From an uncultured Bacteroidales bacterium (lineage in GTDB: Bacteria; Bacteroidota; Bacteroidia; Bacteroidales; JAGOPY01), in the NCBI GenBank assembly GCA_963787195.1, contig CAWBCI010000073.1, positions 18,582-82,581 of the forward strand: DNA of 64,000 nucleotides, in the 5' to 3' direction. Positions 32,660-55,389 of this stretch are shown one piece after another. Below the pieces are notes generated by a model. It was not told the origin of the DNA. It worked only from the letters and a program-made list of their open reading frames with translations, and searched no databases. A program made the position numbers and the translations under genes. The stretch's first letter is position 1. Every line of letters starts with the position of its first letter.

Positions 32660-32729
32660 CAAAGGTGATACAAATCCTTTCTGAAATCATTACACAATTA
32701 AAGAAAAGAATTACAACATTCACATATTT
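32660..32729 (-). promoter_or_regulatory. 70-bp tripartite promoter module U1
   Basis: caaaggtg is at 32660-32667 (reverse complement CACCTTTG). TTACACAATT is at 32690-32699 and TTACAACATTCACATATTT at 32711-32729. The spacings are 30 and 21. Confidence 0.6.
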
Positions 32730-32856
32730 TAATCATGTAATAAACTAATATACAAAAAGATAAATAGCTTGCTAATAAAAATTATCACATTCAGGATTTT
32801 CGGGGTGGAGAATGAAAACACAATATTAAAATGGAAATTAGGGGATATTTTACTAT

Positions 32857-33060
32857 AAAAAAAGCCCTGCTGTTGGATTTTCAGCGGGGCTTGAATGGAA
32901 CGCTTAAACTACGCATTTTGGAACGCTTCTTTAACCTTGTCTTAATACATTATTTTTGTGAATAATTGACTTAAATAACCGGATTGGCAAGTCCGGAAAA
33001 AACTTCAATCTCAATTTACTTATTCAAATATTGTACGCTATAAATTGATGATTGAAAATC
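32857..33060 (-). ncRNA. Candidate sRNA (sibling 2), about 200 nt
   Basis: It runs from module U2 to the terminator AGCCCCGCTG-loop-CAGCAGGGCT plus U7 (32857-32891). The longest ATG ORF is 12 codons. CGUUCC occurs twice. Confidence 0.45.
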
Positions 33061-33066
33061 ATTTAG

Positions 33067-33136
33067 CAAAGATGGGACCTCAATTGTCAAAAATTATTAC
33101 ATAATTTTCGAAAAAATTTACATAATTCACACATTT
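33067..33136 (-). promoter_or_regulatory. 70-bp tripartite promoter module U2
   Basis: caaagatg is at 33067-33074, TTACATAATT at 33097-33106 and TTACATAATTCACACATTT at 33118-33136. Confidence 0.65.
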
Positions 33137-33196
33137 AAAAAACATAATTATTTATATAATTAATGAAAAATAAAATTAGCAGGATAAGGAAATTCC

Positions 33197-33324
33197 AAAA
33201 AAAGTCCCGCTATTAAGTTTTATTAGCGGGACTTAAATTAAACACATATACTCCCAAACCCATGAAAGCTTCTTTATTGATTATTTATTATTATCTATTC
33301 TAGATATTAATTGTGGAACGATTG
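33197..33324 (-). ncRNA. Candidate sRNA (sibling 3), about 130 nt
   Basis: It runs from module U3 to the terminator AGTCCCGCTA-loop-TAGCGGGACT plus U7 (33197-33233). The longest ORF is 16 codons. It shares AAAGAAGC(G/U)UUC and CGUUCC with sibling 2. Confidence 0.45.
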
Positions 33325-33330
33325 ATATTA

Positions 33331-33400
33331 CAAAGATGGGGTATCAAGCTCCCAAAAATCTTACATAATTTCTGAAAAAATTTACATAATTCACACATTT
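33331..33400 (-). promoter_or_regulatory. 70-bp tripartite promoter module U3
   Basis: caaagatg is at 33331-33338, TTACATAATT at 33361-33370 and TTACATAATTCACACATTT at 33382-33400. Confidence 0.65.
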
Positions 33401-33630: not shown

Positions 33631-34707
33631 ATGCAAAAAGATAAATTAACAAAACTTGCATGCGCGAGAAGTAATCCCTGCGTGACTATTTCAATGAACA
33701 CACACCGTACATTTCCGGATAATCAGAAAGATGTGATAGAACTGAAAAAACTCAAGCTGGAGGCATATAAGCAGGTGAAGAATGAATTTGGACAATTTCC
33801 GCTGAGTGATCTGCTTGAAAAAATTGATGGTCTGGATGAGGAAATAGACATTAACTATAATTTGGAGAGCATACATATATTCCTGTCTGACTCGACAACT
33901 GAAATAATAAAATCATCGTGGCCAATACCGCAAAATATCGTTTCTGTTGCTGATAAATTTGTGATCAAACCATTGATCAAAGATTTTAACCGCATGGTAG
34001 AGTATCTTATCCTCTTGCTTTCTCAAACCGATGTGCGCTTATTACATGCCATTAATGACGGTATAGCCGAAGAAATAAAACCCGATGATTTTCCCTTTAC
34101 AACAAATCCGCATTTTACAGTTGAGGAGGATAAAGCCGGCAATGATCAGCATCTTGATAATAAATTTCTGGAATTTTATAATCAGATAGACAAAGCCCTT
34201 TTAAAAATTTACAACAAAAACAAGATGAAAGTTGTGGTGATAAGTACTGAACAGAACTGGAGCCACTTGATGCAGGTTGCTGACAAAGCATCAATTTATT
34301 ATGGGACCCTTAGCATTAACAACAAGGATTCGGCAAATCATTCAATCGCAGCAAATGCATGGAAAATCGTAAGTGCAATACAGGAAAAAGGAAGGGGCCA
34401 GGCTATTCAGGAAATGAAGGACGCTGCCGGACAAGGAAAGGTAATTACCGATTTGTCTGAAATGTACAGGGCTGTCAAAGAGGGAAGGGGTGATTTATTA
34501 ATTGTTCACGACGACTTTCACCAGGCCGTAAAAATGACCGGCGAATTGACATTCGATTTAGTAAGCGATCTCACTCAGCCGGAAGTGATAGATGATATTT
34601 CAAGCGATATGGCCTGGGAAGTCATTTCTAAAAAAGGCCGTGCAATATTTACGAATCAGGATGAGCTTAAATCGCTGGGAAACATTGCTTTAAAAGTCCG
34701 ATATTAG
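33631..34707 (+). CDS. baeRF-like (bacterial archaeo-eukaryotic release-factor-like) family protein
   Basis: The N-terminal PCVTISMNTHRTFPDNQKDVIELKKLKLEA resembles the VSIYxPTHR..Q..IRLKNL signature. The C-terminal GRGDLLIVHDD and the ending ALKVRY also fit. This call rests on recall, not a search. Confidence 0.45.
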   Translation: MQKDKLTKLACARSNPCVTISMNTHRTFPDNQKDVIELKKLKLEAYKQVKNEFGQFPLSDLLEKIDGLDEEIDINYNLESIHIFLSDSTTEIIKSSWPIPQNIVSVADKFVIKPLIKDFNRMVEYLILLLSQTDVRLLHAINDGIAEEIKPDDFPFTTNPHFTVEEDKAGNDQHLDNKFLEFYNQIDKALLKIYNKNKMKVVVISTEQNWSHLMQVADKASIYYGTLSINNKDSANHSIAANAWKIVSAIQEKGRGQAIQEMKDAAGQGKVITDLSEMYRAVKEGRGDLLIVHDDFHQAVKMTGELTFDLVSDLTQPEVIDDISSDMAWEVISKKGRAIFTNQDELKSLGNIALKVRY

Positions 34708-34826: not shown

Positions 34827-34850
34827 AGCATTAAACCAAAAAACAAAAAC

Positions 34851-35609
34851 CTAAAGCGCAATTATACCTGTATCGGTCGATATCCCCACAACGACAATAA
34901 TACCGCTTATGGTGACGGCTTCCATTGGAAAGGGGGGCGTAACGGTAATATCATAGATGCCTGCAGCTAGTCCCGCTAGCAGAAAATCTCCATTTCCATT
35001 GCATACCGAAGAAGATATCATACCATTTGAGTTAGCTGTTATTAAAGCAATCACACCGACAGGGCTAATGCTTCCTCTTATAGATCCGCTTATAGCCTCG
35101 TCTATGGTCCTGATCACGGGCTTTAACTGGTATTCACCATTGCCTTTTAAAACAATGGATTGGTTTGCATCAAAATCAAGCAGGATCTTATATAAAACAC
35201 CCGGTTCAAAGGTTTGGTGAATTTGCAGTTTTAGTCCCGACTGCATAGCACTTGGGGTGCTCAGCGGGTAAACAATACCGTCGACCATCACGGTGTTATC
35301 AGAACCCAGGATCAGGCGGATTTGTGAAACTGTTCCGGCATCCAGGTCTCCTGTAGCAAGAATTGTATCGAGACCGTTTGTAAAATCCAGTAGATTATAA
35401 ATACCGATGCTTGTATTGAGTACAACGGTACTTCCGCCACTTCCGGTAATTTGTGTGCCCTGAACATCTATCATTACCGCATCATAGTTAGCGGGAGCGT
35501 CTGTCAGGCTGACTGTGAGATGCGCCTTAGCCTTATTTGCATCTTTATTACAGGCAGTGACCAGGCTAAGCGCTAAGCCGATAAATATCAGAAATTTTAT
35601 TTTTTTCAC
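34851..35609 (-). CDS. DUF4382 domain lipoprotein
   Basis: It has a lipoprotein signal (LVTACN). LTVSLTDAPANYDAVMIDVQ is typical of DUF4382. Confidence 0.6.
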   Translation of the reverse strand: MKKIKFLIFIGLALSLVTACNKDANKAKAHLTVSLTDAPANYDAVMIDVQGTQITGSGGSTVVLNTSIGIYNLLDFTNGLDTILATGDLDAGTVSQIRLILGSDNTVMVDGIVYPLSTPSAMQSGLKLQIHQTFEPGVLYKILLDFDANQSIVLKGNGEYQLKPVIRTIDEAISGSIRGSISPVGVIALITANSNGMISSSVCNGNGDFLLAGLAAGIYDITVTPPFPMEAVTISGIIVVVGISTDTGIIAL

Positions 35610-36403
35610 TGATATAGTAGTTTATAGAGTTCCTTCAGGTCAGGAGAAAGGATAATTTCAGTCCTGCGGTTGGCTGCCCGCCCTTCCGCTGTTTCATTCG
35701 TTTCTACCGGGTGATATTGGCTTCTGCCTGCTGCCGTGATACGGATTGGATCAAAACCATCGTCTTTTGTCAGGATGCGCACAATTGAGTTGGCCCTTGC
35801 AGTGCTGAGTGCCCAGTTATCTTTATACTGAGCTGTACTGATGGGGACATTGTCAGTATGCCCTTCAATCAGCACAGAAATGTCTTTGGTGTCGTTCAGC
35901 ACCTTGGCAAGAGCTTTAAGGGCTTCTTTCCCTTTAGGGTTCACTACATCACTGCCTGATTTGAATAATAATTTTTCAGTAAGAGATACATAAACATTTC
36001 CGTCTTTAATGTACACGGAAAGTTCATCAGCTTTATATTTCAGGAGTGCATCGGCAACTGTATTTTTAAGATTGTTCATTAAATCCTTTTGCGATTGAAT
36101 CAGGGTCTGAAGGTCTCTCAGCCTTTTAGCCTGGTCGGCAATCGTCATTTTTGATTCACTTGTAAGGACTGCGAGGTCCTTTTGGATTGAAGCATTATCA
36201 TTTTTTAGGCCGGCCATATCTGTTTTCAGGTTGGTGACCTGCATGCTGCAATCATTCAGCTTGGTCTGTTGGCTGGCATTTTCTTTTTGGAGCTTTGCTA
36301 CATTGGCTTCAGAGGCCTTGAATTTTCTGGTAGGAACACAGGAAGTGAATACCAGTGAAAAAACCAGGGGCAGGAACAGCAGGGTGCGTAATTTTCTTCT
36401 CAT
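35606..36403 (-). CDS. OmpA-family protein with N-terminal coiled coil
   Basis: It has a lipoprotein-like signal (FTSC). The OmpA_C motifs are LIEGHTDNVPI, NWALSTARANSIV and NRRTEIIL. Confidence 0.85.
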   Translation of the reverse strand: MRRKLRTLLFLPLVFSLVFTSCVPTRKFKASEANVAKLQKENASQQTKLNDCSMQVTNLKTDMAGLKNDNASIQKDLAVLTSESKMTIADQAKRLRDLQTLIQSQKDLMNNLKNTVADALLKYKADELSVYIKDGNVYVSLTEKLLFKSGSDVVNPKGKEALKALAKVLNDTKDISVLIEGHTDNVPISTAQYKDNWALSTARANSIVRILTKDDGFDPIRITAAGRSQYHPVETNETAEGRAANRRTEIILSPDLKELYKLLYQ

Positions 36404-36537
36404 TTTTTTGTGTTTTTTAATAAATGAATATTTAATTTATGATGAATATTTTCAGAAATCCTAAGTAATTACAGCCGGAATGTGAATTATCAGTGTATAT
36501 GGTCCGGGAAAAACTTTATAGGTTTTATTGACAGGCT

Positions 36538-36741
36538 TCAATCCTCTTCCAGATCATAATAGTCCCATCCTCCTAAACTGGTAAAAGTGCCCTCTCCATC
36601 TAAACTTCCTGTGTAATTTTGATTTTCTCCCACTTCTGAACTACGCATACCAAATTCTTCGCCCGGGTTACTGTCGTTAAAATCATTGACTCTTCCTGTC
36701 ATCTGAACAGGCAGATTCATTTTGTCGTCTGTTGTTTTCAT
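36538..36741 (-). CDS. Small acidic hypothetical protein
   Basis: This 67-aa ORF is the first ORF downstream of module U5. It is Asp/Glu/Gly rich. Confidence 0.4.
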   Translation of the reverse strand: MKTTDDKMNLPVQMTGRVNDFNDSNPGEEFGMRSSEVGENQNYTGSLDGEGTFTSLGGWDYYDLEED

Positions 36742-36913: not shown

Positions 36914-36983
36914 TAAAGATCGTTATCATAAAAGCAAAAAGCATTACACAATTCCTGAAAAATCTTACATAATTCACACATAT
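36914..36983 (-). promoter_or_regulatory. 70-bp tripartite promoter module U5
   Basis: taaagatc is at 36914-36921, TTACACAATT at 36944-36953 and TTACATAATTCACACATAT at 36965-36983. Confidence 0.6.
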
Positions 36984-36993: not shown

Positions 36994-37166
36994 TCAATGA
37001 GACTCAATTTTTTCAAGCGAAGCGAAGAAAAAATTTTTAGTCGAATTGATCCCGAAAAGACGAAGTCTTATTCAGGATCTGATGGGACTAAATTCCCCGT
37101 CTCTTGAGACGAATAAGAGATATTTCCTTAAGATACCCTGCTGCTTGCGACAGGGTAGTTTATTAA
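36994..37166 (+). repeat. Structured intergenic repeat, copy 2 of 3 (with 5' extension)
   Basis: TCAATGAGACTCAATTTTTTCAAGCGAAGCGAAGAAAAAATTTTTAGTCGAATTGATCCCGAAAAGACGAAGTC... matches copies at 16212 and 58756. It overlaps the 3' end of CDS 37072..38673. Confidence 0.8.
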
Positions 37167-38673
37167 GGCAATTACGAATTTCAGGCTTCCTTTTTTTCCG
37201 CAATCCGTATACTGTTCTGAAGTGAAATCCATAAATGGAATATTCAATTGCATCAGCCATCAAACCTGGCCGCCTGATAAGGGTCCAGATCAGTAATTTC
37301 CAATATTCCCTCCGGCCATTATTTATTAAACCGATGATGAAAATTGATTTAAGAAATGCTATAATCGTGGTCAGATCCAATCGGAATGGTTTCGTGTAAA
37401 AAGGTTTATAATTGAGTAATAAACTCCGTAGCCTTTTATAATATGGTTTGGTGGCGTAGATATCCCGGATTATTTTTTTATAGCCTGAAATCAATTCATT
37501 GGGGTTCATCCGGGGAATGAAATTCAGTGACAGGTCGGTATTGCTTCCGGTAGGTTCACTGATCAGGCGGTCTTCAGCCTCCATGCGTTTATAAAGTCGT
37601 GTGTTTTTAGGGACATTTAATAAACCCACCATAGCTGAGACTATCCCGCTTTGCTGAATAAAATCAATCTGTTTTTGAAAAACCGAAGGCGAATCGCTGT
37701 CGAAACCCACGATAAAACCTCCGGAAACCAGCAAACCAGCTTGTTGCAATTTGCTAACGTTTTGAAGGAGGTCACGGTTTTGGTTCTGGACCTTATTGCA
37801 TTCCTGCAGTGAATTTTCATCAGGGGTTTCTATTCCGATAAATACAGCCTTGAAGCCCGTTTCGACCATAAGTTTAATGAGTTCATCATCATCGGCCATG
37901 TTAATGGATGCCTCGGTATTAAAATTAAATGGGTAATTGTGTTCCTGCATCCAAATTTTCATAGCGGGAAGTAAATCATGTTTTATTATGGCTTTATTTC
38001 CAATAAAATTATCATCAACTATAAACACATTTCCACGCCATTGCAAATCATACAAGGTTTCCAGTTCCTTCAGGATTTGGGAAGTCGATTTTAACCGGAC
38101 CCTGTGGCCGAACAGGGAAGTTATTTCACAGAATTCGCATGAAAAGGGGCATCCTCTGGATACCTGTATGTTCATAAAAGCATACTTATTTCTGGCTAAT
38201 AAATGAAAATCGGGCGCCGGCGTTTTTGTTATATCTGCGAACTCGTTGGTTCTGTACATTCTTTCCGGATGACCATCCTGCAGGTCTTTCAAAAATAATG
38301 GAAATGTTATTTCGGCTTCATTAAGTATAAGATGATCAATTTGAGGATAGTTTTGAGGCTCCTGAGTAAAGAGGGGCCCACCGGCAACTATTTTCACACC
38401 TAATTTTAAACACTCATCTATTACCAGGCTGACCGATTCCTTCTGAATATACATGGCGCTCATAAAAACGTAATCGGCCCATTCAATATCTGTTGTTTTT
38501 AGAGGATCTACATTCATATCCACCAGCTTTTTCTGCCAGTCTGAAGGCAGCATAGCCGATACAGTTATTAAACCAAGGGGGGGCACAGCAGCTTTCTTTG
38601 AAATAAAACGTAAAGCATGCTTGAAATTCCAGAAGGAATCAGGGTATTGCGGAAATATTAATAAAACCTTCAT
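37072..38673 (-). CDS. B12-binding-domain radical SAM protein (DUF4070-type C-terminus)
   Basis: The N-terminal MKVLLIFPQYPDSFWNF..PPLGLITVSAML is a cobalamin-binding-type domain. The radical SAM core is SRGCPFSCEFCEI. The last ~30 codons are encoded by repeat copy 2. Confidence 0.75.
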   Translation of the reverse strand: MKVLLIFPQYPDSFWNFKHALRFISKKAAVPPLGLITVSAMLPSDWQKKLVDMNVDPLKTTDIEWADYVFMSAMYIQKESVSLVIDECLKLGVKIVAGGPLFTQEPQNYPQIDHLILNEAEITFPLFLKDLQDGHPERMYRTNEFADITKTPAPDFHLLARNKYAFMNIQVSRGCPFSCEFCEITSLFGHRVRLKSTSQILKELETLYDLQWRGNVFIVDDNFIGNKAIIKHDLLPAMKIWMQEHNYPFNFNTEASINMADDDELIKLMVETGFKAVFIGIETPDENSLQECNKVQNQNRDLLQNVSKLQQAGLLVSGGFIVGFDSDSPSVFQKQIDFIQQSGIVSAMVGLLNVPKNTRLYKRMEAEDRLISEPTGSNTDLSLNFIPRMNPNELISGYKKIIRDIYATKPYYKRLRSLLLNYKPFYTKPFRLDLTTIIAFLKSIFIIGLINNGRREYWKLLIWTLIRRPGLMADAIEYSIYGFHFRTVYGLRKKRKPEIRNCLNKLPCRKQQGILRKYLLFVSRDGEFSPIRS

Positions 38674-38740
38674 GGTTTCTGATATTGTAAGGATGTCGAA
38701 TTAACATCCATGGAGCATAACCATGATTAAACCGGACAGC

Positions 38741-38953
38741 CTATTTTTTTTTGTACGACTGCCATAGAACTACTCCGCCTATTCCCATAACCGCAATACC
38801 AATCAGGGGTGACCAATTGAGGTAATGTGGTTTGTTCCTGGTGATTTCAAGAGTCCCGATATCAACCACTTTCTCTCTGGTGAATATCGTCACTGCTGTA
38901 AAAATGGTCAGCGCCAAACCAATAATTATGATGAGAATGCCAAGTTTTTTCAT
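38741..38953 (-). CDS. Small two-TM membrane protein
   Basis: This 70-aa ORF has its start 28 nt downstream of the -7-like box of module U6. Confidence 0.5.
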   Translation of the reverse strand: MKKLGILIIIIGLALTIFTAVTIFTREKVVDIGTLEITRNKPHYLNWSPLIGIAVMGIGGVVLWQSYKKK

Positions 38954-38980: not shown

Positions 38981-39050
38981 GAAAGATAAGAAAGATAATA
39001 CCTGAAAGCATTACACAATTATTGATAAAAGTTACATGATTTACATATTT
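38981..39050 (-). promoter_or_regulatory. 70-bp tripartite promoter module U6
   Basis: gaaagata is at 38981-38988 (reverse complement TATCTTTC). TTACACAATT is at 39011-39020 and TTACATGATTTACATATTT at 39032-39050. Confidence 0.6.
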
Positions 39051-39053: not shown

Positions 39054-40172
39054 CTACAGTACCTTCTCTTTTTCCAGGGTCGCTATCAGTTTATCGAAGG
39101 ATGTAATGAATTTTTCGACGCCTTCATTTTCCAAATCTTCCGTAACTTTTTTAATATCTATACCTACTTCCGACAATTCTGAAAAGACCCAGGAGGCCTG
39201 ATCTATATCGTCTTCCAGTCGGGAAGCCGGCGTACCATGGTCACGATATGCTTCAAGGGTTTCCATGGGAATTGTGTTGATCGTTTCGGGTCCTATCAGT
39301 GCCTCTATATACTTGATATCGCTGTAATCAGGGTTTTTAGTGCTGGTACTGGCCCAAAGTAGTCTCTGGGGACTGGCGCCTTTTTCAGCCAGCTTGAGAA
39401 AGCGTTCACTTTCAAAGATTTCTTTATAGATCTGGTAGGCAAGTTTTGCGCTGGAAATGGCGACCTGTCCGCGTATCTTCGTTGCAAAATGTGCCTGTTC
39501 CCCGCCTAAAGCTGCAAATTCATCTTCTTTCGGATCAATCACGACATCTATGCGGCTTAAAAAGAAGCTGGCCACGGAGGCTATATTTTTCAAAGCTTTC
39601 CCTTGCTCTGCACGCGCTTCAAGTCCCGCAAGGTAGGCTTCTGCAACTTCCCTGTAGCGGGGCAGTCCGAAGAGTAATGTTACATTTACGTTGATTCCTT
39701 CGCTTATAAGTTGCTGTATAGCGGGCAAACCTTCTTTTGTTGCCGGGACTTTAATAAGAATATTAGGCCTTTTCAAAGTGGCCCACAATCGACGGGCTTC
39801 CTCAATAGTATCCTGGGTATTATGTGCCAGGTGTGGGTTAACCTCAATGCTGACATATCCGTCCCTACCGTCCGACTTATCATATTCTGCCCTGAATTCG
39901 TCAGCCGCCAATCCCACATCTCTCTGGCTTAAGGTTTCATAGATTGCTTCAACGTCTTTTTTCTGCCGGGATAATTCCTGGATTTCCGGGCCGTATAGCT
40001 GGCTTTCAGCTATGGCTTTTTCGAAAATAGATGGGTTGGATGTAATTCCTTTCAATCCGTCTTCTTCAATTAAAATACGAAGTTCACCGCTTGTAATCAG
40101 GTCACGCCTGATATAATCCAGCCAGATTGCCTGACCGAAAGTTCCCAATTTTTTCAATGGATTGTCATTCAT
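39054..40172 (-). CDS. tal: Transaldolase
   Basis: GQAIWLDYIRR, TSNPSIFEKAI and NILIKVPAT (catalytic Lys region) support the call. The length is 372 aa. Confidence 0.85.
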   Translation of the reverse strand: MNDNPLKKLGTFGQAIWLDYIRRDLITSGELRILIEEDGLKGITSNPSIFEKAIAESQLYGPEIQELSRQKKDVEAIYETLSQRDVGLAADEFRAEYDKSDGRDGYVSIEVNPHLAHNTQDTIEEARRLWATLKRPNILIKVPATKEGLPAIQQLISEGINVNVTLLFGLPRYREVAEAYLAGLEARAEQGKALKNIASVASFFLSRIDVVIDPKEDEFAALGGEQAHFATKIRGQVAISSAKLAYQIYKEIFESERFLKLAEKGASPQRLLWASTSTKNPDYSDIKYIEALIGPETINTIPMETLEAYRDHGTPASRLEDDIDQASWVFSELSEVGIDIKKVTEDLENEGVEKFITSFDKLIATLEKEKVL

Positions 40173-48892: not shown

Positions 48893-48898
48893 TTATGA

Positions 48899-49011: not shown

Positions 49012-49429
49012 ATAAAAGAAAGATGCCAGCACCTGTAAGATGCTGGCATTAGCCGGTTTTGCTGTGAAAGGGGGCAATGACAATTGTGAAAGAATTCAGC
49101 ATCAGTACGATGCTGATACCGGCTGATTAACATTAACGAAAGGGCCGTTGACCGAATCGGCAATGACATCCGTACGATGCTGATGCCTGACGGTATTCGG
49201 CTGAGGAAAGGGCGTACTACCTACCGGCACATTATTACGGATGGTGAAAATTGCGCCGCTTAGGATAAAAGCACCAGATGTGTGCCTTCTTTTGCCCCTG
49301 TTCCATGATGAATAATGGCAATGACTTTTACATTTTTAAATCCTTGCCAATAAATTTTCAAAGAACACATTAGAAATCAAAAAACTAGTTTGAGCAATTG
49401 AATTTTTTTTCATCTGCTTTGAAAGCAGG
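49012..49429 (-). ncRNA. Candidate structured ncRNA or micropeptide locus, unit B (about 420 nt)
   Basis: It runs from module U11 to the terminator GATGCCAGCA-loop-TGCTGGCAT with a U-rich tail (49014-49049). The first ORF is only 25 codons. The hairpin at 49220-49264 has the same loop core as unit A. Confidence 0.4.
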
Positions 49430-49435
49430 AAAAGA

Positions 49436-49505
49436 CAAAGTTCGCGCTCCAGGTCAAAGAATTTATTACATAATTTCAGAAAAGATTTACATAATTCACA
49501 CATTT
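49436..49505 (-). promoter_or_regulatory. 70-bp tripartite promoter module U11
   Basis: caaagttc is at 49436-49443, TTACATAATT at 49466-49475 and TTACATAATTCACACATTT at 49487-49505. Confidence 0.6.
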
Positions 49506-49543: not shown

Positions 49544-51379
49544 TTATTGATAATGGATCGGGGCAGGCTTTCCGATAATATAATCCCCTATTATGAAATC
49601 GTTGGTCCTGAAGGAGTTTACTTTAAAAACATTCTCTCCTTTACCGGGTATTACGGGGTAAAAGGCAAGAGAAAGCTGAAATGTACTGAAGACCAGGTAG
49701 TCGTTTTTGATCAGGATTCCAACACCTATTTTTGCGTATACTTTGCTGTTTTTAAATCCTGTTTCCCTATCACTCAGCATACCAATCGAACAGCTTATAA
49801 ATGGACCGAAACGAAAGCCGATAAAATTCCAGGGGGCATAGGCTTGCGATTGCATCGTAAATATCATGCGGCTGTTACCTGATAAAGAAGGGCTGTTAAA
49901 TCCATCCAGACCATAACCATCATTGAGTGTAAGGCTATCGTAAGAAAGCCTGTTTATGCCTAAGATTAGCTGGGGTTTGACAAATTCCCTGAATTTCCAT
50001 TTTCCAATTTCCAGCAATCCCGTAAAATATATAATGTTTGCAGAAAATATTCCCTGCCTGGAATGTGATTGCCGGAAATAGGTCCCATACTCGAAATTGG
50101 AACTGAGATAACCCCAGGAATAATAATTGCCGAAAGCAACCCGGGCGCCTAAGTACAAACTTCCGGTATTATTTCTTTCCTGGTAACCGCCTGTCAGACT
50201 GAATACCTTCCCGATGGGGATATCTTCAATCAGACCAAAATTGAATATAAATTTATCCTGAACATATTTTCTTTGCGAGATCCCAATGCTTCCCAGGTAT
50301 AGATTTTCATTGGAATATAAGCTTGCTGTATCATACATCTCAACTGGCTTGTCCGTAAAACGGATTCTTATAAAACGGACGGCGGAAATAAAATTAGTTG
50401 TGCGCATATTTACCGTATTGCCTTTAAATAATTGAAAGGCATTACCCGCCCAATAATCCTGCACACTAAATTTATATTTCTGCATCAAATAAAGCGAATC
50501 GTTAATGTGGAGGGTATCCCTGCGGTATTCCTGTTTGATAAGTGCACCCGCCCCCCACTTCGCAAGTGGAGAAAAGAAAGGACGGTCAACGGATATACTT
50601 TCAGTAAAATTTCTGTGCTCATCAGTGCTATAATTCAGGGTACTGTTAATATAGGTGTCACGGATGTTAGGAATGAAATAATTGGTCGAGAAAGCATCTT
50701 CTCCGGTGGTATGTTGCCAGCTGTATATATTTCTGAATTCATGCCCAAGGCCTAAAAAATTCCCGTCAAGAATATTAAAAGCGATGCGTGAACCTGAAAC
50801 CACGACTTTTGGAATAATGCTCCAGGTATCTAATTCGCGTATGAAAATATCCACCGAGTCTGAATTTTTTGAAGTGGCAAGAATAAAAAATGAAACATCA
50901 CGAACATATGGCTGGCTGCGGACCAATCGTTCAGATTCTTTCACAAGCAATGAATCGAAGACCTGGTTTTGCCGTATGAGTAGCAAGTTCCGTATAGTTG
51001 AATGCTGTGACTTAATGTGCATTTTATTTCCGCCCCTCATTATGAAGTTTTGAGAGGATACTATGGTGTCGGCAATTGAATTGCCAAAAGGATCAAGGGT
51101 TACGATATTTATATGCCTGATAATCTTTCCTTCAAAAGCGCTATATGGCTTTCTTATCAGTTTTTTATAAGCTTTCTTTTTTTTGGAAGCGGATGCAGTT
51201 GGTTTGAAAACCATGCGGTACATGAACTGGGTAAACTTGCTTCGCCCCGAATAGGCTTCCAGATTCTCATAAAATTTCTCCGGATCTGCTTTCGTGGTAT
51301 CTTTTTGCGCAAACGCAAAATCACTTGCCAAAATTGAAAAAAAGAAAAATATGAGAATGGTTTTAAACCACATATGCAT
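49544..51379 (-). CDS. Omp85/BamA-TamA-like outer-membrane beta-barrel protein
   Basis: It has a signal peptide and a POTRA-like segment (GKIIRHINIVTLDPFG...RNLLLIRQNQVFD). The long Tyr/Gly/Asn-rich beta-barrel region ends in an aromatic residue. Confidence 0.5.
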   Translation of the reverse strand: MHMWFKTILIFFFFSILASDFAFAQKDTTKADPEKFYENLEAYSGRSKFTQFMYRMVFKPTASASKKKKAYKKLIRKPYSAFEGKIIRHINIVTLDPFGNSIADTIVSSQNFIMRGGNKMHIKSQHSTIRNLLLIRQNQVFDSLLVKESERLVRSQPYVRDVSFFILATSKNSDSVDIFIRELDTWSIIPKVVVSGSRIAFNILDGNFLGLGHEFRNIYSWQHTTGEDAFSTNYFIPNIRDTYINSTLNYSTDEHRNFTESISVDRPFFSPLAKWGAGALIKQEYRRDTLHINDSLYLMQKYKFSVQDYWAGNAFQLFKGNTVNMRTTNFISAVRFIRIRFTDKPVEMYDTASLYSNENLYLGSIGISQRKYVQDKFIFNFGLIEDIPIGKVFSLTGGYQERNNTGSLYLGARVAFGNYYSWGYLSSNFEYGTYFRQSHSRQGIFSANIIYFTGLLEIGKWKFREFVKPQLILGINRLSYDSLTLNDGYGLDGFNSPSLSGNSRMIFTMQSQAYAPWNFIGFRFGPFISCSIGMLSDRETGFKNSKVYAKIGVGILIKNDYLVFSTFQLSLAFYPVIPGKGENVFKVNSFRTNDFIIGDYIIGKPAPIHYQ

Positions 51380-51454
51380 CTGACATTAGCAGGAAAGCTT
51401 CTGATTTTTTCTATTATTAATATAGGCCATATACTTATCAAACCTCGTCGCTTT

Positions 51455-52195
51455 TTATTTATTTTCTTCCTCTTTCTTCAGGTCATCGGCTTTCTCCTGC
51501 TCTTTTTCTCTGAGCTTTTCGGCTGCTTTGGCCTTCTTTTTGAAATATCCCCTTAATAGAAAATTATGTTTGGCAGCATTCATATTTTCATCCAGTCCTC
51601 TGCTGCTCTTTTTGAGATTTATAATAGTTTGATTAATATTTTCTGCAATGGTCGTGTCCTGAATTAATCTTCCAAGGGTACCTTCCCCGCTGTTTATTTT
51701 AATCATGATCTCGGCAAGCTGATCCGAAATTATCTCGGCATTTCCGGCTGTAACCTGCAGACTGGCCATTATGGCATCTGTTTCGACCGGCTCGGTGGAG
51801 GCAAGTTCCTGTCCCTCACTGGCCAATGGAGCCTCGGAACTTCCATGTCCTATAGTTATAAGACGGTCGCCTATCAGGCCTTCCGAGCCAATTGAAACTT
51901 CACAGTCTGATTTGATAAACTTTTGAACGTCCCTTTTTATCAACATATCAACCTTTACAGTTGAGTCATTGATTATCTTGATATTATCAACGGTTCCCAC
52001 GTTGATGCCGGTGAAGCGTACATTGTTTCCAACCTGCAATCCGCTTATATTGTAAAAATTGGTCGTAAGTTTAAATACAGGGTTAAATAAATTCTGCTGT
52101 TTTCCGATTATAAAAATGGCGAATACAAAGAGCGCCAGGCCCCCTATAATAAACAGGCCTAATCGTATTTTGAATTTTTGTGTGTGCTTATCCAT
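51455..52195 (-). CDS. mlaD: MlaD/MCE-domain protein
   Basis: It has an N-terminal TM helix. The MCE domain is GLQVGNNVRFTGINVGTVDNI. Confidence 0.8.
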   Translation of the reverse strand: MDKHTQKFKIRLGLFIIGGLALFVFAIFIIGKQQNLFNPVFKLTTNFYNISGLQVGNNVRFTGINVGTVDNIKIINDSTVKVDMLIKRDVQKFIKSDCEVSIGSEGLIGDRLITIGHGSSEAPLASEGQELASTEPVETDAIMASLQVTAGNAEIISDQLAEIMIKINSGEGTLGRLIQDTTIAENINQTIINLKKSSRGLDENMNAAKHNFLLRGYFKKKAKAAEKLREKEQEKADDLKKEEENK

Positions 52196-52231
52196 GGCTG
52201 ATTTTTATTTTAAATTTTGAAATTCAGGTTC

Positions 52232-53014
52232 TCAGTTGAAGAAGGCCTTGATCAGAGTGTCTTCTGACTTTTCAAATAATTCAAGTTTTCCTTCCTGGTA
52301 AACTTCCCCGTTGTGCAGCATGATAACGCGGTTTGCATTGGTGCGCGCGCAGGCAATATCATGCGTGATTATTATGGAAGAAGTCTTGTACTTTATCTGG
52401 ATTTCATTAATAAGGGAACTTATTTCATCCGATGTCACCGGGTCAAGCCCGGTTGTGGGTTCATCATAAAGCATGATCAGGGGATCCACGATTATAGTTC
52501 GGGCCAGACTGATTCTTTTTCGCATACCCCCGGATAGTTGCGAGGGCATTTTATCCAATGCTTCGGTCAAACCAACATTTTCCAGGACTTCAATCACTTT
52601 CTCTTTAATATCTTTTTCACTCATTTTCTTTTTTATCCTTCTCAAAGGAAATTCCAGGTTTTGCTTTACGGTCATCGAATCGTACAAAGCCCCGCTTTGA
52701 AACAGAAAACCTATCTTCTTTCTCAGATCATTCAGTTCATTCCGGTTAAGCTCATTAACATTTTTATCGAAGACGTTTATCGTGCCCCCGTCGGAATATA
52801 ATAAACCAACTATACACTTGATCAGAACGGATTTACCACTGCCCGATTTACCCAGCACCACAAGATTTTCGCCCTTATTAAGATTTAAAGAAATATCCTT
52901 TAATACCTCCTGGCTGCCGAATGATTTTTTAAGATTATTTATTTCGATAACCGTTTCAGGCTTCATTTTTTTTGAAGATGAAGATTTGAGTGATATGTTT
53001 TGTTGTTCTTTCAT
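52232..53014 (-). CDS. mlaF: ABC transporter ATP-binding protein, MlaF-like
   Basis: Walker A is GKSGSGKS, the signature motif is LSGGMRKR and Walker B is LMLYDEPTTGLD. Confidence 0.85.
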   Translation of the reverse strand: MKEQQNISLKSSSSKKMKPETVIEINNLKKSFGSQEVLKDISLNLNKGENLVVLGKSGSGKSVLIKCIVGLLYSDGGTINVFDKNVNELNRNELNDLRKKIGFLFQSGALYDSMTVKQNLEFPLRRIKKKMSEKDIKEKVIEVLENVGLTEALDKMPSQLSGGMRKRISLARTIIVDPLIMLYDEPTTGLDPVTSDEISSLINEIQIKYKTSSIIITHDIACARTNANRVIMLHNGEVYQEGKLELFEKSEDTLIKAFFN

Positions 53015-53853
53015 GAAATCATCATATCAGTAATTTGTACTGCTAACATATCAACTATGATTACAAGCAGGGATGCAAGCACTACTGCTGAATTTGCGGC
53101 TATCCCCACACTTTCGGTCCCACGTCCTGCATTGTATCCTTTATAGGATCCTACCAATCCGATCACTGCACCGAAAAAGAAGGATTTTATAAAGGCAGGT
53201 ATAAAATCGATGAACTCAACATGACTGAATGCCTGTGCGAAAAATAAGACAAAAGACACATCCCCCTTGATATTTGCACCGACCCAGCTCCCGAATATTC
53301 CGAAGGCATCGGCATATAATATTAATAAGGGAATCATAAGTGTAGCTGCTGCCACCCTGGTGACTACCAAAAAGCGCATGGGGTTGATGGATGATACCTC
53401 CATCGCATCAATTTGTTCGGTTACTCTCATCGAGCCTAATTCTGCCCCCATACCCGAGCCGATTTTCCCCGCGCAAATCAATGCCGTTATTACCGGTCCC
53501 ATCTCCCTGATGAGTGAAATGGCCACCATACCGGGCAACATGCCAACTGCGCCGAAATCAACGAGTGTAGGCCTTGTCTGGATAGTAAGCACCAGGCCCA
53601 TGATGGTTCCGGTAATCGAAATAAGTGGCAGGCTTTTATAACCTATCTGAAAACACTGGCGAAAGAATTCCCTGAATTCAAAATGGCGGGAAAATGTTTC
53701 CCTGATAATCTGTAAAATGAAAATAAATACATCTGCAAAATCGGTTATGAAGTTGCCCGCCATTATAGTCTTTGCCTTTGCTTTATACCTGAACTTCAAA
53801 GATTGAGTCCGGGTAAAATTTTTGGCCTTTATCAAGGGTCTGAATTCTTTCAT
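53011..53853 (-). CDS. mlaE: ABC transporter permease, MlaE-like
   Basis: MGPVITALICAGKIGSGMGAELGSMRVTEQIDAME is characteristic of MlaE. The start codon is uncertain; an internal Met (MAGNF) is possible. Confidence 0.8.
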   Translation of the reverse strand: MKEFRPLIKAKNFTRTQSLKFRYKAKAKTIMAGNFITDFADVFIFILQIIRETFSRHFEFREFFRQCFQIGYKSLPLISITGTIMGLVLTIQTRPTLVDFGAVGMLPGMVAISLIREMGPVITALICAGKIGSGMGAELGSMRVTEQIDAMEVSSINPMRFLVVTRVAAATLMIPLLILYADAFGIFGSWVGANIKGDVSFVLFFAQAFSHVEFIDFIPAFIKSFFFGAVIGLVGSYKGYNAGRGTESVGIAANSAVVLASLLVIIVDMLAVQITDMMIS

Positions 53854-53940
53854 TTCGCTTTAACCAGCTTAATTCCGATAATATTATTCTCTTATAATGT
53901 GGAAATTTTTGAAGTATGCCTGAATGAGATTTTCACATTA

Positions 53941-54010
53941 CAAAGATGCATAGCAATTGCGCCGAAAGCATTACACAATTCCGGAAAAGAGTTACATCAT
54001 TCACACATTA
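53941..54010 (-). promoter_or_regulatory. 70-bp tripartite promoter module U12
   Basis: caaagatg is at 53941-53948, TTACACAATT at 53971-53980 and TTACATCATTCACACATTA at 53992-54010. Confidence 0.65.
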
Positions 54011-54037
54011 AAAAGAAAAGCTGCCCATTAGGACAGC
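54010..54037 (-). terminator. Terminator hairpin after the ice-binding-like gene
   Basis: On the - strand the sequence is GCTGTCC-TAAT-GGGCAGC followed by TTTTCTTTTT. Confidence 0.5.
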
Positions 54038-54105
54038 CTCTCCTGATCAAATTCCTGATAAGTCAATAGGGGTAAAGAACACTTCCCAGGAGATATTCTT
54101 AAAGA

Positions 54106-55281
54106 TTATTTCCAGGCCAAATGCCTGTAACGGACAAACAATGCTACAGCAATCAGGACGCCGGCAAAGAGAAGGGCCCAGGTGGAAAGGGGAATACTTG
54201 GAGGGAGAAGCGCTTTACTGGTTATGACTTCATAGGCGCTTGCTGTAATATCGTCTACCTGAGCGGTGGCGATATTTACCACAAAACCATTATCCAGGTC
54301 TGCCTGTGTAATTGCATAGGATATCAGATGTGTATCGCTTTGTCCGGCATCAAGGCTAATGTTCCAGGCGTCGGCCGTGAGGTCATCTGTAACAGTTATA
54401 TTTGTCAATGTACTGCTACCGTTATTTACAACCACTATGCTGTAATCGATTATATCGTCAAGGAATTCAAAAGTTTGCGGGCTGGCCGTTTTGCTAATGC
54501 TGAGTTCACCTTGTACAGGCTGTGACTCGGCCGGCTGGTTCATTGAGCTCAAACCAGCAAGTGTTACTGCTCCGTTACTGGCAAGTAACCTTCCTTCAAC
54601 AGTGGAACCTGAATTCATCGTAATTGATGTTAAGGCCATAATATTGCCTTTAAAATCGGTATAATCTCCAATTGTAGCTGAAGTGCCGACCTGCCAGTAG
54701 ACATTATTAGCCACGGCGCCATTGCTAAGGATAACATTTCCACCTGAAGGAGATGGATTCGGGCTTCCGCCTATAGTGGTAAAGTCAGATGCAATCTGAA
54801 AGATCCAGATAGCATTCGCATCTCCAAGAGCATCAAGCGTCAGATTGCCTGATTGTATTAAAAGTGTGGAAGTTGATTTATAAATGCCCGGGTAAAGTGT
54901 TATACCGCCCTGATCACCCGCTATTGTGGCGGGTGCCGGGTTAGATGCAGTTGCTGCATAAAGATAGGCATCGGTCAGGTCCTGTTTGGCCTGGAGAAGC
55001 ATGACAGGAACTCCCGGAGGGGTAATATCATCGGCAGCATATATGGCTCCATTTACCACGCTGGAAGGAGGAAACCCTGTTATCTGGGAACGAAATCCAG
55101 GACTTAATCCGACATCCATATCGTTAATAACACTCGGGGATCCGGCGCTTGTGATAGCGGTACCGGCAAGTATTCCGAAGTTGGCAGCCGACTTCAGGTT
55201 TGGCGCAATCTGTCCGAAATTTAATGCGGGTATTAACAAAAAGACAATAATTGTTAATGTCTTAAGATACTTTGGTTTCAT
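54106..55281 (-). CDS. Ice-binding-like (DUF3494) protein with DUF11-like repeat and IPTL-CTERM-like anchor
   Basis: It has a signal peptide. FGILAGTAITSAGSPSVINDMDVGLSPG..ITGFPPSSVVNGAIYAADD..AKQDLTDAY matches DUF3494. SISKTASPQ...VVVNNGSSTLTNITVTDDL is DUF11-like. The C-terminus is IPLSTWALLFAGVLIAVALFVRYRHLAWK. Confidence 0.6.
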   Translation of the reverse strand: MKPKYLKTLTIIVFLLIPALNFGQIAPNLKSAANFGILAGTAITSAGSPSVINDMDVGLSPGFRSQITGFPPSSVVNGAIYAADDITPPGVPVMLLQAKQDLTDAYLYAATASNPAPATIAGDQGGITLYPGIYKSTSTLLIQSGNLTLDALGDANAIWIFQIASDFTTIGGSPNPSPSGGNVILSNGAVANNVYWQVGTSATIGDYTDFKGNIMALTSITMNSGSTVEGRLLASNGAVTLAGLSSMNQPAESQPVQGELSISKTASPQTFEFLDDIIDYSIVVVNNGSSTLTNITVTDDLTADAWNISLDAGQSDTHLISYAITQADLDNGFVVNIATAQVDDITASAYEVITSKALLPPSIPLSTWALLFAGVLIAVALFVRYRHLAWK

Positions 55282-55320
55282 AGGCTTTATGATTAAAATA
55301 GATTTTTCACATCTTAATCA

Positions 55321-55389
55321 CAAAGTTCGGATCTTAATTATGCAATGTGTTATATAATTACGGGAATCTTTTACATAATTCACACATTT
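55321..55389 (-). promoter_or_regulatory. 70-bp tripartite promoter module U13
   Basis: caaagttc is at 55321-55328, TTATATAATT at 55350-55359 and TTACATAATTCACACATTT at 55371-55389. Box 2 overlaps the stop codon of the AraC-family gene. Confidence 0.65.

Follow-up and report, generated by a model that had tools for sequence, protein, structure and literature searches.

Class II activation by AraC/XylS-family regulators is known from AraC (araBAD I1-I2), XylS (Pm) and MelR/RhaS, and the related enterobacterial proteins MarA and SoxS act as monomers on a single marbox and are controlled by their own abundance. The stress responses directed by sigma-B in Bacillota, RpoS in Gammaproteobacteria and EcfG-NepR-PhyR in Alphaproteobacteria operate by replacing the sigma factor. 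For Bacteroidota, no description of a general stress regulator was found in the literature, nor was any publication on the module and regulon considered here. In B. thetaiotaomicron, the promoter motif PM2 has been tied to genes of stationary phase and oxidative stress (PMC7366714); being a near-palindromic -10/-30 motif that lacks a -7 box, it is a different element from the module.

The window analysed is a stretch of 64,000 nt from an uncultured Bacteroidales bacterium (JAGOPY01; GCA_963787195.1, contig CAWBCI010000073.1, positions 18,582-82,581, forward strand). It carries 13 copies (U1-U13) of a module composed of a sigma-A promoter core (-7 box yAyCTTTG) and two upstream direct-repeat sites 21 bp apart, the proximal of which abuts -35. 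The best reading of this module set, taken with a neighbouring AraC/XylS-family gene, is an activator-dependent general-stress or dormancy regulon. An earlier note on this DNA was right about the 13 modules in all details checked, and all parts of its interpretation that can be tested on sequence held up; its activator-dependent regulon is supported, and what it overlooked is the probable activator gene itself, an AraC/XylS-family gene at 55380-55940 (minus strand).

In the 64-kb window, TTACAYAATT occurs 15 times against 0.69 expected, and the two-box pattern with 21-bp phasing is found 8 times exactly and 13 times with up to 3 mismatches, while 100 shuffles of the sequence gave no match. With a 42-nt weight matrix derived from the 13 copies, the copies themselves score 45.8-57.8 bits; every other position in the 64 kb stays below 12 bits. 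TGTAA and the -7-like box are separated by 22 nt in every copy but U13, where the spacing is 21 nt; therefore, as the earlier note had claimed of a rigid length, module length is exactly 70 bp in 12 cases and 69 bp in one, and the outermost coordinates, 32660 and 55389, are also exactly those it gave. Twelve modules transcribe the minus strand, and the single plus-strand copy, U4 (33497-33566), indeed lies back to back with the divergent U3, 96 bp away. All 13 copies are intergenic, each aimed either at a gene start (25-172 nt from box to start codon for U1, U4-U9, U12 and U13) or at a unit without a credible ORF that ends in a hairpin and T-run terminator (U2, U3, U10 and U11). The flanks of the copies, said to be unconserved, are unrelated, and terminal inverted repeats are absent.

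At the end of this cluster lies a gene with a TTG start (55380..55940, minus strand) encoding a 186-aa AraC/XylS-family protein (Pfam HTH_18 4.7e-17, HTH_AraC 5.5e-11), whose stop codon, TGA, is located inside box 2 of U13. An AraC/XylS class II arrangement had been proposed from the repeat geometry alone, and an AraC-family gene both abuts the cluster and co-occurs with the module across the phylum. The C-terminal part of the protein is a dual HTH, and the N-terminal ~65 aa (MKIYIKYMVSIRCK...) resemble an HMA domain, a weak assignment (PDB profile E-values 0.14-1; Foldseek E >=0.01, model pLDDT 70). One Cys is invariant in this N-terminal domain; the motif reads CxxC in one subgroup and SxxC in the source genome. 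The protein has more than 8000 homologues, and its orthologues are ~80% identical across orders. In 6/6 genomes examined, the gene (AraC-A) borders a module cluster on the upstream side, a module overlaps its stop codon, and it is never downstream of a module; the region upstream of it contains no module and shows no conservation. Genomic association and site geometry are what link this 186-aa protein to the module, and it is the likely activator of the module promoters.

The same arrangement recurs across Bacteroidota. Loci from Phaeodactylibacter and four other assemblies were picked by protein, independently of the motif; all five (5/5) have a module across the AraC stop codon, and 18 modules lie in and downstream of the AraC gene end, with none in ~44 kb of flanks upstream of the gene. 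By chance, a pattern of 21 specified bases should match well under once in 596 Gb; the motif-driven scan with such a pattern gave at least 120 stretches, almost all from Bacteroidota and from at least five orders (Bacteroidales, Chitinophagales, Saprospirales, Cytophagales and Flavobacteriales), both the taxonomic breadth and the copies per genome being lower bounds. Among the matches listed, an AraC homologue is present in 28 of 120 8-kb stretches, and AraC is the sole recurrent DNA-binding family among 30 families in most loci, as judged from representative sequences and from Pfam on a subset. Also among the matches listed, a module sits at the stop codon of 14/33 AraC genes and directly upstream of 5/33, the latter suggesting that the AraC-family regulator may be under auto- or cascade control. 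On a Runella rosea plasmid, an AraC homologue, a module (30.7 bits) and an ice-binding gene are found side by side. The -7 box, which was left out of the search pattern and the matrix, nonetheless keeps a constant offset in 221 modules drawn from many orders (A64 0.93, T67-69 0.98/0.97/0.85, G70 0.62), in keeping with the promoter function claimed earlier; its first T is degenerate (T 0.43), and the 221 modules show no G-rich -33 column. The intergenic and orientation bias, suggested as a check in related genomes, was found there as well: 223/224 modules fall outside ORFs of 120 aa or more, which nevertheless make up 75% of the sequence scanned, and 171 modules are aimed at the start of an ORF in the same orientation, against 15 that are not.

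Like AraC, XylS, MelR and RhaS, the candidate regulator has a C-terminal dual-HTH domain, and the module shares with class II promoters two direct sites of ~17-19 bp spaced 21 bp centre to centre, a strong distal and a weaker proximal site, and a proximal site that abuts or overlaps the -35 region. Unlike in those systems, the promoter is of the Bacteroidota sigma-A type (-7 TAnnTTTG) without a -33 element, the regulator has the ~65-aa HMA-like domain instead of a cupin/sugar-binding domain, control appears to extend over a stress regulon of multiple operons instead of a single catabolic one, and both operator and protein are nearly unchanged across a phylum. Compared with the canonical Bacteroidota sigma-A promoter (-33 TTTG/-7 TAnnTTTG), the -7 box keeps its usual position whereas the -33 TTTG is missing. 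MarA/SoxS/Rob are likewise small AraC-family proteins that use an asymmetric ~20-bp site, fixed in orientation and distance to the promoter, at many scattered stress genes; the module differs from the MarA/SoxS case in its two phased sites, the sensor-like N-terminal domain of its putative regulator, and a far more rigid and better conserved site.

All units below are on the minus strand except that of U4. U13 (55321..55389, 69 bp), which extends over the final codons and the stop codon of the AraC gene, would drive a 391-aa secreted ice-binding-like (DUF3494) and DUF11/DUF7507 protein (54106..55281; Pfam 4.8e-58). U12 (53941..54010) precedes a predicted operon (49544..53853; Pfam) of mlaE (53011-53853), mlaF for the ABC ATPase (52232-53014), mlaD (51455-52195) and, as its last gene, one for a 611-aa protein of unknown family (49544-51379). 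U9 (48426..48495) precedes a 176-aa signal-peptide protein (47870..48400), for which no Pfam or NCBIfam family matched. U8 (47781..47850) faces a co-directional gene run (41210..47740; Pfam) that begins with DUF5670/lmo0937-like (47585-47740) and YtxH (47271-47549) genes and continues with genes for a 137-aa protein (46808-47221), an AI-2E-type transporter (45754-46479), DUF6600 (44401-45627), a GlgP-like phosphorylase (41731-44367) and RpiB (41210-41671). The rpiB and glgP genes had been placed in the block without a module of their own; both probably belong to the regulon via a long U8 operon, glgP also lying near modules in two other loci (L127 and L099). U7 (40755..40824) heads a unit (39054..40703) with a 96-aa lipoprotein (40413-40703) and a transaldolase (39054-40172; Pfam TAL_FSA 7.5e-86), and U6 (38981..39050) one (37072..38953) with a 70-aa membrane protein (38741-38953) and a B12-binding radical SAM/DUF4070 enzyme (37072-38673; Pfam). 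U5 (36914..36983) precedes genes (34851..36741) for a 67-aa acidic protein (36538-36741), a coiled-coil OmpA-domain protein (35606-36403; Pfam) and DUF4382 (34851-35609; Pfam). U4, on the plus strand, would drive a 358-aa Balon-family (baeRF family 3) putative ribosome hibernation factor (33631..34707), and U1 (32660..32729) a cupin-like 112-aa protein (32159-32497; Cupin_2 weak, 19.8 bits against a cutoff of 27.2) and possibly a HemN/HemW-like radical SAM protein (30966-32147; Pfam; unit 30966..32497).

The four remaining minus-strand modules face candidate noncoding transcripts. U11 (49436..49505) is followed by a unit of ~417 nt (49015..49431; terminator 49049-49023; fold z -5.5) and U10 (48899..48968) by one of ~360 nt (48535..48894; terminator 48571-48543; fold z -5.1), and the two share colinear similarity; the U11 unit is a candidate structured ncRNA and paralogue of the U10 unit. 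U3 (33331..33400) precedes a short unit of ~135 nt (33192..33326; 11-bp hairpin and T-run; fold z -4.25) and U2 (33067..33136) one of ~205 nt (32858..33062; hairpin and T-run; fold z -3.07), and both are candidate sRNAs. Rfam gave no match for the U11 and U3 units.

The proposed stress or dormancy character of the gene set gained from both the window and other genomes. The gene formerly called baeRF-like matches the ribosome-hibernation family of Balon (Pfam baeRF_family3 2.2e-35, 123 bits; NCBIfam NF052287 268.7 bits, under the cutoff of 330); AOC03_06830 is Balon itself (PMC10901736). Among the loci sampled, the Balon-like gene is tied to a module in the source window only. Elsewhere, CsbD, YtxH, Usp, DUF5670 and OmpA/Gly-zipper genes recur behind modules, as do ice-binding-like, cupin, B12-radical-SAM and Mla genes and regulator paralogues. 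Ice-binding-like genes, the most frequent family among the matches listed, account for at least 15 module-driven cases in other genomes, OmpA/Gly-zipper lipoproteins for at least 14, DUF5670 for at least 10, cupins for at least 9, DUF6600 for at least 4, and YtxH and the 70-aa membrane protein family for at least 3 each. MlaE is found behind modules in at least 5 other loci, the 611-aa protein in at least 5 other module-bearing loci, the 176-aa secreted family behind modules in at least 6, and B12 radical SAM orthologues in at least 10, in most of which the module is just upstream of the gene. This content overlaps with that of the sigma-B, RpoS and EcfG-NepR-PhyR regulons in CsbD, YtxH, Usp, small membrane peptides, OmpA/OsmB-like lipoproteins, a ribosome hibernation factor and glycogen metabolism, and csbD is a core sigma-B gene (PMC2248587). 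The regulator paralogues share operons with PAS histidine kinases and single-domain receivers, which recalls alphaproteobacterial phosphorelay inputs. Unlike those responses, the module keeps the housekeeping sigma-A core and would add a transcription activator, and no anti-sigma or partner-switching components were found. The module-driven genes combine functions in the envelope and in carbon storage with others that are unknown; what triggers the system could be more specific than general stress, e.g., cold/freezing, osmotic/desiccation, redox or metal stress.

On this evidence, the module is quite probably a complete activator-dependent promoter through which an AraC/XylS-family protein drives a general-stress, stationary-phase or dormancy programme conserved across Bacteroidota. 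Lacking a -33 TTTG and having a degenerate first T, the promoter should have low basal activity. The distal site is full (AAATGTGTGAATnATGTAA, about -74 to -56), and the proximal one, T-rich followed by AATTrTGTAA (about -54 to -35), abuts the -35 region, its promoter-side half alone being conserved. The 186-aa protein is predicted to bind both directly oriented sites, 21 bp or two helical turns apart, with one dual-HTH domain each, and from the proximal site to recruit RNA polymerase, in the class II manner of AraC at I1-I2 and XylS at Pm; its HMA-like domain presumably takes the signal or mediates dimerisation. In the source genome, the regulon would comprise at least 13 transcription units, including the Balon-family hibernation factor, YtxH, the DUF5670 peptide, OmpA-like envelope proteins, Mla lipid transport, the ice-binding-like exoprotein, glycogen phosphorylase, pentose-phosphate enzymes and four ncRNA candidates. 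The flavobacterial -7 box lies at -12 to -5 (PMC9723704), so transcription is expected to start ~5 nt past the G of the box.

It is unlikely, though the most serious alternative, that another cognate factor, such as an OmpR/PhoB-type response regulator on TGTnA direct repeats, activates these promoters and that AraC is a conserved neighbour or regulon member. TGTGA/TGTAA direct repeats over -35 would also suit winged-helix response regulators, histidine kinases and receivers are the commonest non-target family (29/120 loci among the matches listed), and AraC paralogues are themselves module-driven in several genomes. However, the recurrent receivers are single-domain or in hybrid kinases and have no DNA-binding domain, no second DNA-binding family recurs in loci among the matches listed, AraC-A keeps its edge position, with its stop codon inside a module and never behind one, in 6/6 genomes, and the repeats have a 21-bp period with 17-19-bp sites, typical of AraC/XylS, and are not 10-11-bp tandem repeats.

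Repression or dual control, in which an AraC-family or other factor would occlude the promoter until release, is less probable still. Activation and repression are indistinguishable from sequence alone, and some AraC-family members are known to repress or loop DNA; against this, the missing -33 element and the degenerate first T of the -7 box (T 0.43) argue for a weak core promoter needing help, the sites (about -74 to -35) are entirely upstream of -35, clear of the -7 box and TSS, and rigid helical phasing to the -7 box is a requirement of class II activation. There is very little to be said for an alternative (ECF-type) sigma promoter with TGTAA as -35 and CTTTG as -10: in L127, an ECF sigma gene is driven by one module, and sigma factors drive general stress regulons in other phyla, but the downstream box matches the sigma-A -7 consensus, TAnnTTTG, both in sequence and in position, differs from the CGT-type -10 known for Flavobacterium ECF promoters, and is accompanied by conservation to about -74, far past any sigma contact, and no sigma gene recurs in loci among the matches listed. 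Mobile-repeat (MITE-like) remnants or recent local duplication without a regulatory role, which 13 copies in 23 kb might bring to mind, are hardly credible and are contradicted by the flank, orientation and cross-order tests, given unrelated flanks, no terminal inverted repeats, nearly all copies intergenic and aimed at gene starts, and the same 70 bp kept in at least five orders before homologous genes.

Activation by the AraC/XylS-family protein is the reading preferred here, and the regulon would be phylum-wide in Bacteroidota rather than special to the source genome, with a likely regulator that can now be named.

The promoter module is a predicted activator-dependent element of about 70 bp built from two direct-repeat boxes and a -7-like box. 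TTACAYAATT occurs 15 times in the window against 0.69 expected, and a search for the two-box pattern with 21-bp phasing at up to three mismatches gave 13 matches in the window and none in shuffled sequences, so the 13-copy tripartite element described in the earlier note from the sequence is real. Every copy (U1 to U13) reads aaATGTGTGAATnATGTAA - N11 - AATTrTGTAA - N22 - yAnCTTTG on the transcribed strand, the last gap being N22 in 12 copies and N21 in U13, and the sequences around the 13 copies are unrelated, which agrees with the fixed gap and the unconserved flanks reported earlier. A 42-nt weight matrix spanning both boxes was derived from the 13 copies, as that note had proposed; it scores them at 45.8-57.8 bits, while the rest of the 64 kb stays below 12 bits.

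Gene identities in the window were taken from Pfam and NCBIfam profile searches. On the minus strand, U13 (55321-55389) precedes a gene for an ice-binding-like exoprotein, U12 (53941-54010) precedes mlaE, mlaF, mlaD and the gene of a 611-aa protein, and U9 (48426-48495) precedes that of a 176-aa secreted protein. U8 (47781-47850, -) is followed by DUF5670 and YtxH genes and then, co-directionally and in an operon of predicted extent, by genes for a 137-aa protein, an AI-2E-type transporter, DUF6600, a GlgP-like phosphorylase and RpiB. Moreover, U7 (40755-40824, -) precedes genes for a lipoprotein and transaldolase, U6 (38981-39050, -) a 70-aa membrane protein and a B12 radical-SAM enzyme, U5 (36914-36983, -) a 67-aa acidic protein, an OmpA-like protein and DUF4382, and U1 (32660-32729, -) a cupin and perhaps a HemN-like radical-SAM gene. 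The 162-nt leader that separates U1 from the cupin gene contains a 33-aa Lys/Glu-rich ORF (MLNLARISKSKQESILIERQKKLNKAEKECRLI; 32538-32639, -), which could encode a leader peptide or small protein. The ORF of the AI-2E-type transporter (45754-46479) has 241 aa and covers profile positions 4-193 of 327 only, while the homologues in two comparison loci (L125 and L126) have 369-376 aa; the window gene may be truncated or frameshifted.

The one plus-strand copy, U4 (33497-33566), precedes a gene whose product scores 123 bits against Pfam baeRF_family3 (cutoff 31.5), which bears out its earlier description as baeRF-like. Along its whole length, the same protein also matches NCBIfam NF052287, the profile of AOC03_06830 family ribosome hibernation factors, with 268.7 bits, under the equivalog cutoff of 330. 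AOC03_06830 is Balon, whose genes usually reside in stress operons (PMC10901736); among the loci sampled, a Balon-family gene is linked to a module only in the window.

Four modules precede ORF-less units that are candidates for non-coding RNAs. The units behind U11 (module 49436-49505, -; unit 49015-49431, -, about 417 nt) and U10 (module 48899-48968, -; unit 48535-48894, -, about 360 nt) are ORF-poor, end in strong terminators and fold with z scores of -5.5 and -5.1, respectively, against shuffled controls; they are colinear paralogues with 70-77% identity in blocks. The terminator-ended units of U3 (33331-33400, -) and U2 (33067-33136, -) are 135 and 205 nt long, with fold z scores of -4.3 and -3.1. 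Rfam gave no match at the gathering threshold in the whole window and, in a search of 32400-49600 at E<=1, only two chance-level matches. No homologues of the four units were found in the other loci sampled, and the units may be lineage-specific.

The earlier note had deduced an AraC/XylS-type activator from the repeat geometry, and a gene of this kind, absent from its account, does adjoin U13. The gene (55380-55940, -) lies directly upstream of U13, starts with TTG and encodes 186 aa with matches to HTH_18 (62.5 bits, cutoff 33.6) and HTH_AraC (42.8 bits, cutoff 26.6). AraC/XylS regulators are defined by two helix-turn-helix motifs in a C-terminal domain of about 100 aa; here the dual helix-turn-helix occupies residues ~96-174, and PDB sequence matches are to AraC-type DNA-binding domains; the NCBIfam profile search assigned no specific family. 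Its stop codon is the TGA within ...AAATGTGTGAAT of U13, and therefore the last residues of the candidate regulator, L-E-N-V-stop, are encoded by the operator itself. At 55380-55392 (-), the distal box, the one further from the promoter, doubles as the C-terminal codons and stop of the gene, an overlap kept across orders. The same overlap is found in the comparison loci L002 and L124-L127 and, among the matches listed, in 14 genes of the motif-driven loci.

The TTG start is present in four of the six orthologues compared (the window, at 55938-55940, L124, L126 and L127) and may keep translation of the regulator low. Across these six orthologues, no conserved operator or module lies 5' of the regulator gene, and the upstream regions are unconserved. 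About 150-200 bp upstream of the window gene, at ~56090-56140, a GCAGTCA-like heptamer is repeated in a short tandem array (agtcagcagtcagcagtcagcagtcaac…ggcagtcggcagtca) that was not seen 5' of the orthologues. In L125 (368-1643), Fur and AhpC/peroxiredoxin genes stand just upstream of the regulator, an arrangement seen once and compatible with a redox or metal connection.

The link between module and regulator is also visible when loci are chosen by protein. More than 8000 homologues of the regulator were found, and the best 120 of these are 77-88% identical, which is unusually high conservation for a transcription factor; their named sources include Bacteroidales, Saprospiraceae and Phaeodactylibacter. 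Five orthologue loci with 10-kb flanks were selected without reference to the motif (L002 of Phaeodactylibacter and L124-L127), and in all five a module overlaps the AraC stop codon. These loci hold 18 modules in or downstream of the end of the AraC gene and none in ~44 kb of upstream flanks. The downstream genes encode CsbD, YtxH, DUF5670, OMP beta-barrels, OmpA/Gly-zipper proteins, Usp, an AI-2E transporter, GlgP, glycogen synthase, an ECF sigma factor, a GH130 and GT4 pair, and a set of regulator paralogue, PAS kinase and receiver. Module islands repeatedly contain a gene for a GH130 phosphorylase-like protein together with one for a large GT4 glycosyltransferase (L125 10137-13507, L126 18299-20540, L085 2852-4324, L094 5690-7879 and L002 17191-19563), and the pair may make a compatible solute or storage glycoside.

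The DNA motif was searched in 596 Gb of species-representative genomes with the pattern ATGTGTGAATnATGTAA-N16-TGTAA, whose 21 specified bases are expected there well below once by chance at uniform base composition. At least 120 stretches were returned, almost all from Bacteroidota. Among the matches listed are Bacteroidales in the broad sense (Prolixibacteraceae, Draconibacterium, Mariniphaga, Maribellus, Carboxylicivirga, Ancylomarina, Sunxiuqinia, Labilibaculum, Paludibacter and Rikenellaceae), Chitinophagaceae (Ferruginibacter, Segetibacter and Flavisolibacter), Saprospiraceae, Lewinellaceae and Haliscomenobacter, as well as Cytophagales (Emticicia and Arcicella) and Flavobacteriales (Lutibacter). 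The matrix scan of these stretches found 205 modules at >=30 bits among the matches listed. Two module-bearing loci carry other labels, L065 a Candidatus Saccharibacteria MAG and L076 a Syntrophales MAG; L065 contains an AraC-kinase-receiver operon typical of Bacteroidota, and both are most likely mis-binned contigs. In some genomes, L017 and L071 among them, modules lie on separate contigs or 150 kb apart, so the regulon consists of an island and dispersed members.

Among the matches listed, 223 of 224 modules lie outside ORFs of at least 120 aa, although such ORFs hold 75% of the bases, and 171 modules point at the start of an ORF that runs in their own direction and begins no more than 600 nt away, while 15 do not; the ATG follows the end of the 42-nt core at a median distance of 68 nt. 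The earlier note had named random orientation or intragenic placement, as of a MITE remnant, as the pattern that would speak against a regulon, and had called for a scan of related genomes for intergenic and orientation bias; both biases are plain in these counts. MITEs and other dispersed repeats have terminal inverted repeats and conserved element ends and insert regardless of gene orientation, and such an origin was rejected in view of the unrelated flanks, the lack of terminal inverted repeats and, among the matches listed, the intergenic placement and orientation of the modules towards genes. Directly downstream, among the matches listed, stand genes for ice-binding-like proteins (15), OmpA/Gly-zipper proteins (14), CsbD (12), DUF5670 (10), cupins (9), B12 radical-SAM enzymes (7), regulator paralogues (7), the 176-aa family (7), MlaE (5), DUF6600 (4) and YtxH (3). 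Window genes also found near modules elsewhere, among the matches listed, are the radical-SAM gene (10 loci), Mla with the 611-aa protein (5) and glgP (2).

Members of the regulator's own AraC family are encoded in 28 of the 120 motif-selected 8-kb stretches among the matches listed, against well below 1% expected at one or a few copies per 5-Mb genome. Of the 30 families that recur most often, no other binds DNA, as judged from representative sequences and Pfam on a subset of the matches listed. Among these matches, a module sits at the stop codon in 14 of 33 such genes, and these 14 mostly end in L-E/D-N/D-V; a module lies directly upstream of five, so paralogues of the regulator are themselves regulon members.

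The sites bound by AraC/XylS regulators are asymmetric and ~17-20 bp long; they often come as direct repeats with 21-bp phasing, and in the class II arrangement the proximal one lies at -35. This geometry is present in all 13 window copies and in 221 modules among the matches listed. When these 221 modules were aligned gap-free, a -7 box, which was in neither the search pattern nor the matrix, appeared among the matches listed at a fixed offset, with A at 0.93, TTT at 0.98/0.97/0.85 and G at 0.62, the first T being conserved at only 0.43. A canonical Bacteroidota sigma-A promoter has a -33 TTTG, whereas in the same 221 modules, among the matches listed, TTTG is absent ~19 bp upstream of the -7 box and no column of module positions 41-62, from the proximal repeat to the -7 box, has G above 0.37. 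The yAyCTTTG box fits the Bacteroidota sigma-A -7 consensus (TAnnTTTG); a sigma-70 consensus scan is uninformative for Bacteroidota. The flavobacterial -7 box occupies -12 to -5 (PMC9723704), from which the start position was taken; on this scale the proximal repeat would cover about -44 to -35, and the distal site would cover about -74 to -56.

The module has the standard class II layout known for AraC at I1-I2 and XylS at Pm, in which two direct 17-19-bp sites lie 21 bp apart and the proximal one is at -35 of a promoter lacking its own upstream element. Two regulator protomers would bind the two sites, and the proximal one would contact RNA polymerase; binding and activation by the regulator, the start site and the signal are all inferred. 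The strong distal and half-conserved proximal sites suggest that occupancy of the proximal site is signal-dependent. Recognition by an ECF or other dedicated alternative sigma factor was rejected, given the sigma-A-type core and the fact that no sigma gene recurs in the loci among the matches listed, and the B. thetaiotaomicron PM2 and F. psychrophilum sigma motifs SM1-6 are different elements. A CRP/FNR site, the palindrome TGTGA-N6-TCACA, was rejected, as TGTGA and then TGTAA stand in the same orientation without an inverted partner.

AraC proper, which is sugar-responsive, has an N-terminal cupin-type ligand-binding and dimerisation domain, whereas the candidate regulator has an alpha/beta domain of ~65 aa instead. 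No Pfam domain, HMA included, was detected in residues 1-95. The first ~65 residues begin MK(L/I)YIK(Y/N)MV(S/C)xRC(K/Q)... and form a strand-helix-strand-strand-helix-strand pattern. HMA domains have a beta-alpha-beta-beta-alpha-beta fold, which this order fits, and their first loop carries an MxCxxC metal site; at this position, one subgroup of regulators has CxxC and the window's subgroup SxxC, the second Cys being invariant in 25 of 25 sequences. A PDB profile search placed HMA proteins on top, aligned on the CxxC motif at weak E values (0.14-1), while Foldseek with a model of pLDDT 70 returned generic alpha/beta sandwiches, the CopA metal-binding domain ranking 11th (E 0.2). The domain is accordingly called HMA-like, and sensing of metal or redox state is a hypothesis.

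Some regulator paralogues share an operon with two signalling genes, either one for a cytoplasmic multi-PAS hybrid histidine kinase and another for a single-domain receiver, or a receiver gene and a CHASE3 kinase gene (L114 3794-7723, L015 1550-5665, L028 436-4534, L064 4908-7967, L065 1268-4603, L110 3399-6798, L094 2143-5573 and L124 10672-14439). These operons, absent from the window, are often themselves preceded or followed by a module and may form the signal-input layer. On a Runella rosea plasmid (NZ_CP030852.1; L128 10025-12561), an AraC homologue, a module of 30.7 bits and an ice-binding gene in divergent orientation adjoin one another, so regulator and module can move together as a cassette. 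The regulator family is likewise represented on other plasmids of cultured Cytophagales, with examples in Chondrinema, Hymenobacter, Spirosoma and Pontibacter.

General-stress, stationary-phase and dormancy regulons of other phyla are marked by CsbD, YtxH, Usp, small membrane peptides, OsmB/OmpA-like lipoproteins, Mla, glycogen turnover and Balon-family hibernation factors. The loci contain CsbD, YtxH, Usp, a putative hibernation factor, and envelope and osmoprotective proteins, in keeping with the stress/dormancy-like gene set that the earlier note had recognized. The sigma-B, RpoS and EcfG regulons are typically co-induced by several unrelated stresses or in stationary phase, and they depend on a dedicated alternative sigma factor, whereas the module promoters have a sigma-A-type core; to our knowledge, Bacteroidota lack all three of these factors. 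The csbD gene is a core sigma-B gene (PMC2248587). We give about an even chance to the reading that Bacteroidota possess a phylum-wide stress/dormancy programme without an alternative sigma factor, run by one conserved AraC-family activator with an HMA-like single-cysteine sensor domain through a 42-bp tandem site that hardly varies and is joined to a disabled sigma-A promoter, with input from paralogue/PAS-kinase/single-receiver modules and an output that includes a Balon-type hibernation factor and undescribed ncRNAs. The frequent ice-binding-like proteins and the HMA-like sensor leave this programme open to narrower triggers, such as cold or freezing, redox or metal stress.

The type of mechanism is already known; the apparent novelty lies in the sensor domain, in the promoter context, in an operator that is nearly invariant across the phylum, and in a stress regulon based on an activator rather than a sigma factor. 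The earlier note was not aware of such a response having been defined in this phylum, and a search of full texts, a body outside which most subscription journals fall, likewise turned up neither the motif nor the regulator, nor any master regulator described for Bacteroidota in general stress, stationary phase or dormancy. For a phylum dominant in soils, sediments, oceans and guts, the finding supplies a concrete candidate regulator, a site so sharp that a simple scan would predict the regulon of any genome, and a set of target families of which many have no known function. Cultured carriers exist in Maribellus, Ancylomarina, Sunxiuqinia, Carboxylicivirga, Ferruginibacter and Runella rosea. 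Moreover, the finding places a putative Balon-family hibernation factor under defined, if predicted, transcriptional control, and suggests that an activator working with the housekeeping sigma factor, rather than sigma replacement, can be the basis of a general stress response.
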